Assembly: GCA_963703315.1 (NCBI GenBank)
Contig: OY969811.1
Location: 2,816,001-2,880,000, forward strand
Source of the DNA: an uncultured cyanobacterium
Lineage (GTDB): Bacteria; Cyanobacteriota; Cyanobacteriia; Pseudanabaenales; Pseudanabaenaceae
Direction of reading: 5' to 3'
Length of the DNA stretch: 64,000 nt
Shown here: in pieces, positions 15,001-21,000 of the stretch
How the letters are laid out: every line of letters starts with the position of its first letter
How positions within the stretch are numbered: the first letter of the stretch is position 1
Position numbers: made by a program

Positions 15001-18000
15001 TTTTAATAATCAATGGATTGAGGTGCGAACAGGTACACCACCCCAAACTTTGCAGCAGGTGATGCAGCGATGGGAAGGTGATCGCGTGAAGAAATCGCCT
15101 CAGACTAGTTTTAAGCGGCTCATTAATCTCGTGCGATCAGGTAAACCTGCGATCGCCTTAATTCGGGTTGGCAGTTTGAAGATTCCCTATGTCGGCTCGA
15201 TTCCCTATTTACATTGGATTGCAATAACAGGAGTTGATTCCCAACGTCAACAAATCTATTACACAGATACGAATAGTCAAGAATATTCACTGTCCTATCA
15301 GGACTTTCAAGCAAAGTGGGATTTGGGATTGAATAAAGATGTAAGCAGTGCGATCGCCAGTGTTCTCAAAAGTAATGGAGTAGAAGCAAGAACCATCGTT
15401 TGGGTGGATCGCTAAAGTCAGCATTAAATCAACTCATACATCTAAGACGCGCTCCAATAGGTCGAGAATTCCGTTTGTTATCGCCACTTCAATAGATAAA
15501 TAGTTCACAATTAGTTTATAGTAGTCGTATTACTCGAAAATTTCATATAGTCCTGTATGCCTAGTCTCAGCCTCAAGCCATCGCACAAGCCGATCAAGAA
15601 TTACTATGAGGTCTTGGAGCAATATACCAAACTGGGGGTTGAGCATGAAGGGGCGGTGAGTAGTGCTTTTCAGAATTTGTTAGATTCCTGTGCGCGGCAG
15701 TTTCAATGGACTTTGATTCCGCAATATGCGATTAAACGCTCGAAAAAGCAACCAATTCGCATCGATGGGGCTTTGGTGGATAGTTACAATTTGCCGCGAG
15801 CTTATTGGGAAGCGAAGGATATCAACGACAACTTAAAGAAGGAAATCCCGAAAAAGTTTGCGGTGGGCTATCCCAAAGACAATATGTTGTTTCAGCGTCC
15901 CGATCACGCCATTCTCTATCAAGATGGCAAGTTGGTGATGGATGCGGATCTCACTAAGGATCAAGATTTAGTCGATATCGTCCGCCAGTTTTTTGAATAT
16001 CGTGCGCCAGCGATCGCGCAATGGGAAAAGGCTGCCGAGGAATTTGGCGATCGCGTGAAGGATCATGCTACGGCTTTGTTGGATTTAATTCGCGTACAGG
16101 AGAAGACTAACAAAAAGTTTATCGATGCTTTTGCGGCGTTTATGTTGCTTTGCCGTCAGTCGATTAATCCGAATCTGGCGGAGTCGGCGGTTGAGGAGAT
16201 GTTGATTCAGCATTTACTAACGGAACGGATTTTTCGGAGTGTGTTTAATAATCCTGATTTTGCACAACGAAATATCATTGCGGTTGAGATTGAGAAGGTA
16301 ATCAATGCCTTGACCTCTAAGCATTTTAGCCGCGCTCATTTTTTGAGTAGTTTGGATCGGTTTTATGGGGCGATCGAGGAGACGGCGGCGACAATTGATG
16401 ATTTTTCGCAAAAGCAGGATTTCTTAAATACGGTCTATGAGAAGTTCTTTCAGGGCTTTTCGACAAAGGTTGCAGATACGCATGGGATTGTGTATACACC
16501 GCAGCCGATTGTAAATTTCATGGTGAAGAGTGTGGAGGAGATTTTGCAACGGGAGTTTGGTAAGTCTCTGGTGGATAAGGGTGTGCATATTCTCGATCCG
16601 TTTGTGGGAACGGGAAATTTCATTATGCGGGTGATGCGCGAGATTGCGGAAATCCAGAAGTTGGCTTTGCCTCACAAGTATGAGCATGAGTTGCATTGCA
16701 ATGAGGTGATGTTGCTGCCCTATTACATTGCTTCGATGAATATTGAGCATGAGTATTTTGAGCAAACTGGAAAATATGAGGCGTTTGAAGGAATTTGTTT
16801 GGTGGATACGTTTGAGGATCAGCGTATTGAGCAGTTGGGTTTGTTTACTCCTGAGAATATGAAACGGGTAGAGAGACAAAGGGAATCAGATTTATTTGTG
16901 GTGATTGGGAATCATCCGTATAATGTGGGACAGTTGAATGAGAATGACAACAATAAGAATCGCAAGTATACGACTAAAAACAAGACTGGGATTGATGATC
17001 GCGTAGCAGCGACCTATGCCAAAGCTTCAAAAGCGACTAATAAAAATGCAGTTTCAGATATGTATGTAAAGGCGATTCGGTGGGCTTCAGATAGAATCGG
17101 TGATGAAGGTGTGGTAGCTTTTGTGACTAATAATAGTTTTATTGATGCTTTAGCTTTTGATGGAATGCGTGAGTTTTTAGAGAAAGAGTTTAGCCAAATT
17201 TATGTTTTTGATTTGGGTGGTAATATCCGCAAACGCACATCCAAACCTGTTTACAATGTGTTTGATATCCAAGTTGGGGTAAGTGTTAATATTTTTATTC
17301 GTAAAAAAATGGAGTAATATTTTTGTGAAGTTACGAGAGATAGTTGAACGAATTTTTATCGATCCTCGAAAGTTAACTACCTATGCACTTGATCCAAGTA
17401 GTTTGAAAGGAGGTAATAAAGCAATTATGTTTCAGAAGCATTTGGGGTTTACACAGGATAACTATCAATTGCTTTTAAATCAGATTCAAGATAAAGTTAT
17501 GGATAGTGAGGCAGTAGTAGGAGTGTATAACGAACATGGACAGAAGTATCAAGTTGATATCTTGATAAGTGGTGTAGCTGTGGGACAACAAGAAATTGTC
17601 AGAACAGGATGGATTGTTAAACCTAATGAAGATTTTGCTAGACTTACAACTTTATACATACGGAGTCGCAAATGATTAAGCCAGAGTTATTTGATGTTGT
17701 TGAACTGTTAATTGATTTGCCAGATTTAGAAATCAAGGCTGGAGAACTTGGCACGATTGTTGAAGAACATAATGGTCGGGCTTATGAAGTAGAATTTGCA
17801 AATGATGAGGGTGAAACTCTTGCACTTTTGGCTTTGACTCCTGAGAAGTTTATTGTGGTGTGGAAAAATGAAACTCACTCGTGGGTATCTTTGTCTGATC
17901 GCATTAATGCGATGCTGCAAGTTATTCCAGAAGATGGACAAGAAAAGGTTTTGAATTTTGCTCGTTCTCTTTATAAAACTCCTGCGTAGATATGACAAAA

Positions 18001-21000
18001 GCTAAGATTTACTATGCTCAGGTTGATGACTCTTGGACGAAGCAGGAAAAACTGGGATATCTGGAAAAGTTGGTGCATATTGGGAATGTGCAATGGCAGG
18101 AGATTACGCCCGATGCAAAGCATACTTGGCTGACTGAGGGGTTAGAGGATGAGTTTGATACTTTTATTCCAATTGGCAATAAGGAAACAAAAGATGATTC
18201 TCAAGATTCGGCAATATTTTCAAATTATGGTAGAGGCTTGGAATCTACGCGAGATAATTGGGTTTATAACTATAATCAGGAATCCTTAGCTAGAAATATT
18301 TCTGCTTTTATTAGTACCTATAATCAAGAAGTCTACAAGTGGCATAACGAAAGGAAGCCAGAGGATACGATAGATTCTTTTGTTCTATATGACGATCAGA
18401 AAATAAAGTGGAGTAGTAGATTAAAAGAATGTCTTGCAGCTAGGCATTCTATCGAATTCGAGCAAAGTAAAATCAGAAATTCTCTTTATCGTCCTTTTTC
18501 TTTTCAATATCTTTATTTTGACGAAGTACTCAATCATCGAAGAGGACAATTTCATTATATCTTTCCAAATTTCAAGGTAGAAAAAGAGAATCAGATAATT
18601 TGCTTAGCTGGAATTGGCAATAGAAAAGAATTTGGATGTTTTGCTTCAAATTTAATTGTTGCTTTAGATTTTGCCTTTGAAAAGTCACAATGTTTACCGT
18701 TCTATATCTATGATGAAGATGGAACTAATCGCCGCGAAAATATTACTGATTGGGCATTAGAAAAATTCCAAACCCATTATCAAGATCCCAAAATTACCAA
18801 ATGGGACATCTTCCATTACACCTACGCCCTACTTCATCATCCACACTATCGCCAACGCTACGCCGCCAACCTCAAACGCGAACTACCGCGCATCCCCTTC
18901 GCACCAGAGTTTCATCCCTTTGCCACAGCAGGAAAAAGCCTCACCGAAATCCATATCAACTACGAACAACAACCCGAATATCGCCTCAAACATATTGAAA
19001 ACAAAGACCTCCCAATCGATTGGCGAGTCGAAAAAATGCGCCTCAGCAAAGACAAAACCCAAATCAAATATAACGACTTCCTCACCCTCACAGGTATTCC
19101 CCCAGAAACCTTTGAATACAAACTAGGCAACCGTTCCGCCCTAGACTGGATCATCGATCAATACCAAGTCAGCACCGACAAACGAAGCGGTATCACCAAC
19201 GATCCTAATCGTCTTGATGATGAAGAATACATCGTGAGATTGATTAAGCAAGTAATTACCGTGAGCTTAGAAACCGTTAAAATTGTAAAAGGTTTACCAG
19301 ATTTAGGACTACCAAAGGATTAGTCAATGTTAATATCTTGATAAGTTCCAGCAAGTTAGGACGGCAAGATTATGAAAAGCCCCATCAAACTTCAGCAAAA
19401 CATCAAGTCATTTATTCGCTCCAATTTAGAAGGCGGCTATGTTGCTGAATGCCTAGAGATATCCGTAGTAACTCAGGGCGATACACTAGATGAAGTGGTC
19501 GATAATCTTTTAGAAGCCGTTTCATTGCACTTAGAAGGAGAAAACCCCGAAGATTTTGGCTTAGTGCCTAATCCATCAATTTTTGTTACCTTTGAGCTTC
19601 AACCCGAATATGTCACAGCTTAAACGTCTTTCTGGGAAAGATGCGATCGCTATTTTCAAAAAATTTGGCTTTGAAGTTCATAGTCAACGAGGTAGCCATA
19701 TTAAGTTACGCCGCATCACACCGTCTGGGAAAGAAACCTTGACTATTCCCAATCACCGCGAACTAGCAACAGGAACTTGTCAAGCCCTTTTTCGGCAAGC
19801 AACGCGCTATATTTTGGAATCAGAGTTATTTCCTTATTTCTACGAATAATTAAAGATTTTACAAAAAAATATTAGAGCATTATCTGATTATGATAGAGCC
19901 GATTATGTAGATACAACTGATTGGGTGTTAGGGAAAAAGGAACTGGAAGATCTATGAATACATTAGATAGAGAATATATATTAAATGAGTTGCGCGGTTT
20001 GAAATTAGAACTGCGCGATCGCTACAAAGTTACTAAAATTGGCATATTTGGCTCAGTAGCAAGAAATGAAGCGACTGAGGAAAGTGATATTGATATTGTT
20101 GTAGAAATGGAACCAAATATGTTAAAGCGAGTTGGACTTAAACAGGAGTTAGAGAGATTATTTGACAAAGAAGTTGATGTTATTCGTTATCGAAAGAGTA
20201 TGAATCCTTATCTAAAATTAGAAATCGATAGGGAGGCTATTTATGCGTGAACAAGTAGATCTTTTGAAACTATTTTTAGAAATTGATGAGGCAATCAGAA
20301 GGATCGAGCGGCGTTTTAATGGAATTAAAGAGCCAGACGATTTTATTCGTGATATTGATGCCGAACAAATGCGACTCAAAGGAGATTACGATCGCACCGA
20401 ACGACTAGAACCTGAACAAGCAGATATTGATGCAACTGAAATTCGCGACATCATCACAGAATATAACAATTGAAAATTTTGGGCGGCAGCTAAACTTACC
20501 TCTAGCTGGCGGCGAAAGCGATCGCGCTTATCCAATATATAAATTTGGAGGAAAAAACCAATTAAGATTCACTCTTGTGACCTAGATAACGTTTAGAATG
20601 ATCGCTAGTGTCCACAATAAGTATCTGAATAGTGGATAACTGACGAACGAGTATTTGAAGATATGGCAACAAAGCAAGCAGCAATTTTAGTCTTGGCGGA
20701 TGGTACTTGTTACCGAGGCTATGCCTTTGGCGCATCGGGAACCGCGATCGGCGAAGTGGTATTTAATACAGGCATGACAGGCTATCAAGAGGTGATGACC
20801 GATCCCAGCTACCGAGGTCAAATTGTCACTTTTACCTGTCCCGAACTGGGTAATACAGGCGTAACCCCTGAAGATGATGAGTCCGATCGCCCACAGGTGC
20901 GCGGCGTAATTGCCCGAAATATTACGGCAGTACCTAGCAACTGGCGATCGCGTCAGTCTTTACCCGATTACCTGAAGGCTCATAACGTCGTGGGCATTGC

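Follow-up and report, generated by a model that had tools for sequence, protein, structure and literature searches.

A DrdV-like restriction-modification enzyme encoded as two genes, with a probable recombination-fed toxin-antitoxin slot in its specificity tract

The window analysed here is a 64,000-nucleotide stretch from an uncultured cyanobacterium of the Pseudanabaenaceae (contig OY969811.1). On its forward strand lies a gene for a 586-residue protein (g02676; 15557..17317), termed the N-chain, which matches PF22240 (ISP_coupler) and PF02384 (N6_Mtase) and holds a PD-(D/E)XK nuclease, a helical connector and most of an N6-adenine methyltransferase (MTase) domain, ending past strand beta7. 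The C-chain gene on the same strand (g02679; 17992..19323; 443 aa; PF18135, Type_ISP_C, E 1e-102) encodes, by the boundaries of DrdV, the last strand and helix of the methylase domain (approximately residues 1-50), a variable target-recognition domain (TRD) and a conserved C-terminal part. The first-pass annotation had taken these proteins for halves of one enzyme, and their matches to positions 21-584 and 592-1012 of the 1024-position PADLOC profile PDLC03621 bear this out. The two reading frames are set apart by stops and a 674-nt gap, and so do not form the single polypeptide of a type IIG/IIL enzyme. Within the gap are a DUF6883 gene (17325..17675, forward strand; 116 aa, GTG start; PF21814, E 1e-35), predicted to encode a BECR-fold RNase toxin, and a DUF4926 gene (17672..17989, forward strand; 105 aa; PF16277, E 2e-22), predicted to encode an immunity protein or antitoxin, whose start overlaps the DUF6883 stop. 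Two small, adjacent, co-oriented genes for a toxin fold and its partner have the layout of a type II toxin-antitoxin (TA) system. The available part of one source places DUF6883 in BECR-Tox3 and gives the DUF6883-DUF4926 toxin-immunity pair as a prediction (10.64898/2026.08.28.747851). The N-chain stop is 7 nt from the cassette and the cassette 2 nt from the C-chain start, as expected from the earlier statement that both halves are open with stop and start within 8 bp of it.

Directly downstream of the C-chain gene is a second cassette slot on the same strand, with HicB-like and HicA genes (19372..19849; PF07927, E 2e-16; PF15919/PF24113 weak and below cut-off), followed by a nucleotidyltransferase (MNT) gene and a truncated HEPN-like gene (19954..20473; PF01909, E 9e-16), the first 46 residues of which are 79% identical to the HEPN of locus L044. 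A contig from run X1, which is a possible source of the window and not independent of it, covers 16949-19807, including both junctions, with 0 differences. A scan for promoters and terminators was uninformative: it returned 9 promoter-like sites where chance predicts 13.8, and 2 terminator-like sites where chance predicts 4.1. The RNA run does not demonstrate transcription.

Judged by sequence, the locus is a DrdV-like type IIG/IIL restriction-modification (RM) enzyme encoded as two genes. Its nuclease residues E31, D70, E85, K87 and K100 correspond to E25, D64, E79, K81 and K94 of DrdV, in the PD-(D/E)XK pattern. In the available part of its description, DrdV (type IIL; PDB 7LO5/7LVV; 10.1101/2021.01.06.425610) has the same domain order and length with these nuclease residues conserved, and contacts DNA bases from both the MTase and the TRD; the fused relative L010 matches it at E 1.6e-203 and by fold. 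DrdV is one chain, whereas the split loci comprise two genes cut near DrdV 578-588 with TA genes between. The earlier label "type IIG/ISP-like" is therefore kept in its first part, the closest solved relative being DrdV, and dropped in its second because the helicase of type ISP is absent. The Pfam scan recovered coupler, MTase and TRD families alone, with no translocase domain or helicase family, and the profile was matched end to end. LlaGI and LlaBIII, which belong to type ISP, have homologous coupler, MTase and TRD regions, but their matches begin at query residue 191, past the helicase-like ATPase that the window enzyme lacks. A type I/IIB system with a separate specificity subunit was also rejected, given that chain 2 opens with a strand of the methylase sheet, so that the methylase fold is incomplete in chain 1. 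Motif I of the methylase is intact in the window copy. Motif IV reads NPPY in 139 of 140 loci and NHPY in the translated window copy alone (16910..16921, forward strand), and run X1 has a hole at 16902-16948 which leaves that base neither confirmed nor refuted. The window copy may be impaired by NHPY, which we consider a real chance but the lesser one.

The cut had been described as one fixed point between methylase and TRD; the site is indeed fixed, but it falls short of that border. It lies inside the methylase fold, in a surface loop between the last two sheet strands and approximately 50 residues ahead of the TRD. The MTase domain of DrdV spans residues 295-635 and the cut maps to approximately 578-588; thus, chain 2 carries the last methylase strand and helix plus the TRD. 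In the AlphaFold model of L010, strands 579-586 and 598-603 flank the cut, and helicase-length homologues are continuous across the loop wherever the junction was displayed or scored. A start codon stands at the conserved place in 48/50 split loci. In a C-half protein search, whose length filter leaves out most fused forms, 112 of the 120 top-ranked standalone C-chain clusters have their initial Met no more than 12 residues from the site. The C-chain start overlaps the stop of the last cassette gene in 16/50 split loci. The mode of chain-2 translation is thus not uniform, as in 15/50 no upstream ORF ends close to the second start and just 13/50 have a Shine-Dalgarno-like word. A complex model of the two chains scored 0.86, against 0.00 for the best control, with at least 89% of contacts agreeing between runs and a partner pLDDT of at least 87; the mark was reached by 116/157 solved pairs and 2/215 mismatched pairs, and the pass may reflect memory because DrdV is solved. 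Synonymous difference at the junction is 0.64-0.84 and not lowered, which argues against DNA-level homogenisation of the arms; protein change alone is low (0.11 vs 0.26-0.28 in fused loci, a set in which two types of junction are combined).

The first-pass annotation held that a normally single-chain enzyme is split at this site beyond the present genome, and a repeated census and the Pfam content of the gaps agree. In a sample of 80 GTDB loci out of 479 hits, the same counts were obtained again: 33 fused, 33 with a gap above 150 nt, 6 otherwise broken or adjacent and 8 without a second half on the contig. Two of the 33 gap loci are not clean, as a transposase-like ORF cuts L033 approximately 16 codons upstream of the usual site and the C-terminal half of L035 is reduced to a 66-codon remnant. 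Some loci are split but empty (L045, L144, L303 and L308). The same loop is also the split site in a second subfamily (B), which is only approximately 40% identical and carries cassettes of its own. A plasmid search returned 117 records, all below 60% identity and none close.

The tree of split and fused forms, left open by the first-pass annotation, indicates that the split arose more than once. A single clade for all split rows was rejected by the AU test (p=0.002), and the counts of changes cannot separate gain from loss. It is very improbable that the two-gene state is ancestral and single chains come from repeated fusion, a view in keeping with those counts and with an AU test that did not reject one clade for the split rows of subfamily A (p=0.07). 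In both subfamilies the split clades lie within groups of fused rows, the present tree already suggests fused forms at the base of each, and DrdV, LlaGI and LlaBIII each consist of one chain. Of the 46 loci sampled in two other phyla, 39 were fused, 4 could not be scored and 3 were flagged as split (2 being the queries and 1 a frameshift), and the cut itself parts two strands of one sheet.

Both halves are conserved as protein and are under purifying selection. Pairwise counts near saturation, from non-independent rows and retaining only pairs with dS of 0.05-1.5 (86-123 of 253), gave split cyanobacterial copies a median dN/dS of 0.06-0.09 throughout the N-chain. Along the C-chain the median was 0.19 over the opening 50 residues, 0.42 for the variable TRD and 0.08 for the C-terminal part; subfamily B gave 0.05-0.13 (9-21 of 55 pairs). 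Specificity residues still vary, with 26 combinations in 27 split rows and motifs shared with fused alleles. These data bear on the proposal that TA insertions knocked out the gene and left decaying relics. The NHPY of the window copy, the commonness of degenerate modules and further lesions in 7/31 split loci speak for it, but 24/31 split loci are intact against 28/34 fused ones, a lesion rate resembling that of fused copies (6/34). Low dN/dS in both halves at near-saturated dS, the conserved new start codon and the standalone C-chain clusters also count against decay, which we regard as improbable. The search found no methylome for an intact split copy; the only one that it yielded is for the strain of L033 (PMC4752239, supplements; locus tags linked to L033 by position only), in which several IIG genes in pieces are called 'possibly active' and one IIG motif has no assigned gene; it is uninformative here because the L033 copy is broken elsewhere.

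The gap content turns over faster than its flanks. There are 26 arrangements in the 38 cyanobacterial gaps of subfamily A, and of the 29 locus pairs whose cores share 95% identity or more, 27 have different gaps. The description of the gap as a place of swappable TA cassettes was confirmed by Pfam: TA-family genes occur in 38/38 of these gaps, by a query set built from these same loci but with independent Pfam names, and a full-length pair in 29/38; the other 9 have none, and many modules are chimeric debris. Such modules also occur in 16/18 subfamily-B gaps. Scraps of the split host gene itself, 38-224 nt long with variable ends, were found in 5/34 complete gaps and 2 incomplete ones, and together with the fast turnover they favour recombination by way of the gene halves over the action of an integrase. 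Fused and split forms had been said to alternate among close relatives. Instead, the fused copies L010 and L013 have flanks mostly 88-100% identical to split copies around a middle of mostly 50-77%, and L016 has a shorter foreign tract. Such mosaics suggest replacement by recombination, which we infer from these sequence scars.

An integron, shufflon or IS-type cassette system was considered and rejected: no recombinase was found among 10 ORFs scanned in the window, junction repeats were not convincing and scrap ends vary by locus. A repeat search at the window cassette found no terminal repeats or target duplication. HIP1 occurs at approximately 1.0/kb in gaps versus 1.8/kb in the window genome, giving no sign of HIP1-directed insertion. 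Cyanobacterial Xis elements are a precedent for excision that restores a chain. Excision of the cassette from DNA, or its splicing from RNA, would return a single chain here, and XisH-XisI pairs do occur in 2/38 complete gaps. We nevertheless find this scarcely credible, as the longest words common to both window junctions are 5 nt direct and 6 nt inverted, the scanned ORFs held no recombinase, the joints listed for 4 runs include none between the two halves (on contigs alone, from which rare forms would escape) and the conserved ATG with variable stop position suits two genes. Joints of the C-chain end with the DUF4926 start and with MNT, seen in runs X2, X3 and X15 (small shares, probably from other organisms), fit cassette shuffling and were not used as evidence.

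The explanation that we favour, and hold to be probable, is a working two-chain enzyme whose specificity tract houses a recombination-fed TA slot. Chain 2 would fit its first strand back into the chain-1 sheet and rebuild the active enzyme. The new intergenic space would lie in the middle of the tract (approximately residues 400-820) that sets DNA specificity and that strains presumably exchange by homologous recombination via the conserved gene ends. TA modules landing in the gap would be swapped with the gene halves as homology arms. Modules may stack where microhomology serves to join the incoming DNA at one of its ends, leaving host-gene scraps between them, and would be lost once a fused allele takes the place of the tract. 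The last module may often couple translation to chain 2. Most likely, the modules are passengers exploiting a co-transcribed, often exchanged site, with an addiction effect that is modest at most.

A less likely possibility, though one of some weight, is that the cassette is a working part of defence: that it guards the enzyme, its toxin being freed if a phage stops expression or acts as an RM inhibitor, in the way that PrrC guards EcoprrI; that TA operon autoregulation and translational coupling set the dosage of chain 2; or that it penalises loss of the specificity tract. The near-universal TA content of the gaps and the convergence of two subfamilies on the same arrangement favour this, and PrrC and tvrAT are precedents. 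However, at least 10 unrelated TA families are interchangeable in the slot, and cassette type is barely tied to TRD allele (pairs with a first or last module in common have a mean identity of 0.55-0.56, vs 0.54). The same families occupy the downstream slot of 16/25 split loci and clusters elsewhere in the genome, empty split loci exist, and the available part of the pneumococcal study reports that addiction by tvrAT was tested and not found (PMC6265443). It is likewise rather unlikely that conversion to two chains recurred so that a TA module could work inside the specificity tract, gating the TRD chain and killing or arresting cells whose RM is shut off, inhibited or overwritten. If true, this would amount to a slot for defence cassettes that is intragenic and needs no integrase, with the recombination that alters DNA specificity also serving to reload it.

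Our literature search found no earlier description of such a split enzyme with TA cassettes. As far as the available parts of the sources go, M.AquI and M.EcoHK31I are methylases naturally made of two complementing polypeptides, but they are C5 methylases with no nuclease and no intervening cassette mentioned (PMC3404938). Pneumococcal tvr (SpnIV) likewise has a TA-like pair, tvrAT, within the specificity-switching part of an RM locus, but there a single fixed Phd-Doc pair sits between the hsdS segments of a type I system, which has a recombinase of its own as well as direct repeats (PMC6265443), whereas the split loci have many TA families, no recombinase or repeats found, and a split single-chain enzyme. 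In the type IC ecoprrI operon, the gene for the toxic nuclease PrrC lies between whole genes as a dedicated guard (PMC12707154), in contrast to small interchangeable TA pairs between halves of one domain.

Annotation pipelines will call split loci pseudogenes, or an orphan methylase and an orphan TRD. The loop would be a natural, repeatedly evolved split point in the N6-adenine methylase fold of a type IIL enzyme, useful in the design of split-methylase tools and wherever the two halves of a specificity code are to be mixed. The natural series of fused, split-empty, split with many cassettes and re-fused forms makes the role of embedded TA modules, as guards, regulators or passengers, testable. 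The loci also illustrate a route by which TA modules can spread with no need of an integrase, carried along by a tract on which diversifying selection acts.

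Four plus-strand ORFs make up the locus: an N-chain ORF of 586 aa (15557-17317), a DUF6883 ORF of 116 aa (17325-17675) and a DUF4926 ORF of 105 aa (17672-17989), both assigned by family match, and a C-chain ORF of 443 aa (17992-19323). The outer two match consecutive stretches of a single 1024-position type IIG profile, in agreement with the first-pass annotation, which had described them as halves of one enzyme around a toxin-antitoxin (TA) pair. The split locus is single-copy in the genome, and its closest relatives are in Pseudanabaena-type cyanobacteria. A contig from run X1, possibly the window's own source and so not independent, covers both cassette junctions with 0 differences. 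G+C is 35-37% in the gap and the variable target-recognition domain (TRD) vs 42-43% in the conserved parts and the genome. A secreted-type C39 peptidase gene lies directly upstream (14675-15415), with no link seen. Among the best 80 of 479 GTDB matches, 33 loci were fused, 33 had a gap >150 nt, 6 were adjacent or otherwise broken and 8 were without the second half, the same counts as in the earlier census. Metagenomes gave 65 scorable loci from 78 (48 fused vs 17 split, near-duplicates among them). In 71 genomes of the window's family, which overlap the GTDB set, 16 of 18 full-length close second-half matches fall within open frames no longer than 520 aa, and the other two within frames >1000 aa.

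The closest solved structure, and the best fold match, is DrdV, a single-chain type IIL enzyme of 1029 aa (E 1.6e-203). The window enzyme, which the first-pass annotation called type IIG/ISP-like, is not type ISP, because homology to LlaGI and LlaBIII, both of type ISP, starts only downstream of their ATPase. It has each of the five residues given for the nuclease of DrdV, and positions matching its base contacts are located on both sides of the cut. Counted on the sequence alignment, the cut maps to the DrdV loop at ~578-588; this falls inside the methylase domain, given as residues 295-635 in portions of the DrdV report (10.1101/2021.01.06.425610), rather than between methylase and TRD parts as first suggested. 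In an AlphaFold model of the fused homologue L010 (mean pLDDT 72), strands 579-586 and 598-603 flank this loop, thus a strand of the methylase sheet is predicted to open the second chain. When the complex was modelled with chain 1 trimmed to residues 282-586, chain 2 residues 5-9 paired with the chain 1 strand 546-552 (score 0.86 vs 0.00 for the best control; contact agreement ≥89%; partner pLDDT ≥87), the mark being reached by 116/157 solved pairs and 2/215 mismatched pairs. Because the DrdV structure was already solved, this model indicates likeness, not binding.

Motif IV of the window copy (16910-16921) reads NHPY, found nowhere else, and NPPY is present in 139/140 loci. Run X1 has a coverage hole over this codon, and the change is either a mutation or an assembly error. 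Since the altered position contributes through its backbone and differs from one N6 methylase to another, inactivation of this copy is possible but not certain.

Both halves carry signs of constraint. For 23 split copies from cyanobacteria, the median dN/dS was 0.06-0.09 across the first chain; along the second it was 0.19 over the first 50 residues, rose to 0.42 in the variable TRD and fell to 0.08 in the C-terminal part (pairs with dS 0.05-1.5 only, 86-123 of 253), and fused copies gave 0.08-0.28. Further lesions are similarly frequent in fused (6/34) and split (7/31) copies. Of 50 split loci, near-duplicates included, 48 have ATG or GTG at the conserved start position and two have a HicA-like ORF fused in frame instead; in 16 of the 50, the stop codon of the final cassette gene overlaps the chain 2 start. 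Furthermore, a protein search for standalone C-chains of 228-728 aa found Met within 12 residues of the split site at the start of 112 among the top 120 clusters. At the positions equivalent to base contacts, 27 split rows carry 26 combinations, and the motif variants they use recur in fused alleles. Selection, starts and varied contact positions would fit the pattern of an active, diversifying enzyme; that split copies are pseudogenes fits poorly and is improbable.

Several variants were also observed. L053 (10125-11672) and L007 carry a HicA-like ORF fused in frame ahead of the C-chain (~516 aa). By eye, the N-chain gene of L236 is cut down to its first 147 codons, followed by cassettes and an intact C-chain gene, and the locus adjoins a truncated nifH-like ORF. 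C-chains of the second, distant subfamily (B) in L305 (5636-6292), L306 (5717-6250) and L313 (5649-6149) have an in-frame DUF559 nuclease-like insert, and many C-chains listed by the protein search likewise contain inserts of the DUF559 and IS200-like (PF01797) kinds.

In the window's own kind, subfamily A, TA-family genes occupy 38/38 cyanobacterial gaps examined, with full-length pairs in 29 and 26 arrangements among them (a survey confined to cyanobacterial gaps with three near-duplicates set aside, queries from the same loci and names from Pfam). Of 29 pairs with ≥95% identity in the core of the gene, 27 differ in the gap, which bears out the swappable cassettes of the first-pass annotation. 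Multi-module gaps contain host-gene scraps of 38-224 nt between modules, comprising first-chain ends and second-chain starts or ends; these occur in 5/34 complete gaps, 2 incomplete gaps and several downstream regions, and their free ends are variable, with short microhomologies at some. One homologous anchor and one illegitimate joint are expected to leave such scraps. At the window, a family scan of 10 ORFs detected no recombinase and a repeat search gave neither att sites nor terminal repeats, and cassette excision or splicing, a poor fit, is barely credible. Probably, the locus encodes a type IIL enzyme made as two chains, and recombination supplies the gap between its halves with passenger TA modules, where one-anchor joining would leave scraps between stacked modules. 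Directly after the C-chain stop (19323-19346), 20 nt resemble the N-chain gene end (17279-17298) at 80% and 18 nt resemble a segment of DUF6883 (17553-17570) at 94%; this may be a recombination scrap that has decayed, or it may be chance.

A second slot directly after the gene holds the same TA families in 16/25 split vs 2/28 fused loci, a comparison biased by the query set, with Pfam detecting TA genes of other kinds downstream of some fused loci. The genome is TA-rich, and at ~3.022-3.026 Mb (L161:6196-10192) a 1169-aa type IIG-like gene directly precedes a RelB-like/ParE-like pair with relatives among the gap cassettes. TA genes beside restriction-modification (RM) genes are thus ordinary here, and the unusual part is TA inside a split domain, not TA adjoining RM. 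By eye, three further regions of this genome (L164, L165, L167) have dense TA-like clusters with duplicated and truncated members, adjoining LRR and NACHT-like genes.

A tree built on residues 1-290 unites 23 split and 4 fused cyanobacterial copies in one starred clade. In a first tree of the junction, three of those fused copies move to a distant fused group (support 100). Over residues 1-400 and 840-1000, the DNA of L010 and L013 mostly matches split copies at 88-100% identity, but in the middle tract mostly at 50-77%; the foreign tract of L016 is shorter. All three appear to be recombinants with a specificity tract from a fused allele. The earlier claim that fused and split forms alternate among close relatives is thus to be corrected, these three fused copies being mosaics.

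Subfamily B, which shares 38-40% identity with the two halves of the window enzyme, has its splits in the loop where that enzyme is cut: 43 hand-picked loci, not a frequency, comprised 18 split, 23 fused and 2 unscorable, with gaps holding DUF2281-PIN (9), DUF4258-MqsA-like (6), an HNH pair (1) or nothing (2; Pfam on a subset). A further junction tree of 81 rows, trimmed by 6 subfamily-B rows, placed subfamily-B split rows in one clade (95) and cyanobacterial subfamily-A split rows in another (99, mosaic L010 inside), the subfamilies being separated at support 100. An AU test rejected a single clade for all split rows (p-AU 0.002) and did not reject one for subfamily-A split rows (p-AU 0.07). 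At least two origins of the split are therefore indicated; an ancestral split state fits poorly and is very improbable. Convergence and near-universal occupancy would suit a cassette that guards or regulates the enzyme, but interchangeable modules, their debris and empty gaps speak against this role, which we consider unlikely.

Outside cyanobacteria, splits are rare, and their gaps contain REP-like palindromes, an IS200-like transposase, lone HicB-like or MqsA-like genes or a spacer <90 nt. Fused L080 carries an 87-nt in-frame palindromic insert within the split loop (8734-8822). We infer that the loop tolerates insertion and that small repeats may be the starting point of splits. The split copies of L116 and L118 retain the whole linker of their fused relative L140, followed by a long palindromic repeat and then a new start codon; here the gene may have been split recently.

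Every ingredient has precedent, as far as portions of the sources describe them: two-chain C5 methylases (PMC3404938), PrrC in a type I locus (PMC12707154) and tvrAT in a shuffling hsdS locus (PMC6265443). An abstract-level search, with most subscription papers, REBASE and preprint supplements outside its scope, found no description of a type IIG/IIL enzyme that is split and has exchangeable TA cassettes. Qualified by the odd catalytic motif (NHPY) of the window copy and by the predicted status of the enzyme's activity, the sequence comparisons point to an arrangement that is real, conserved and convergent, built from known parts and, as such, apparently undescribed.
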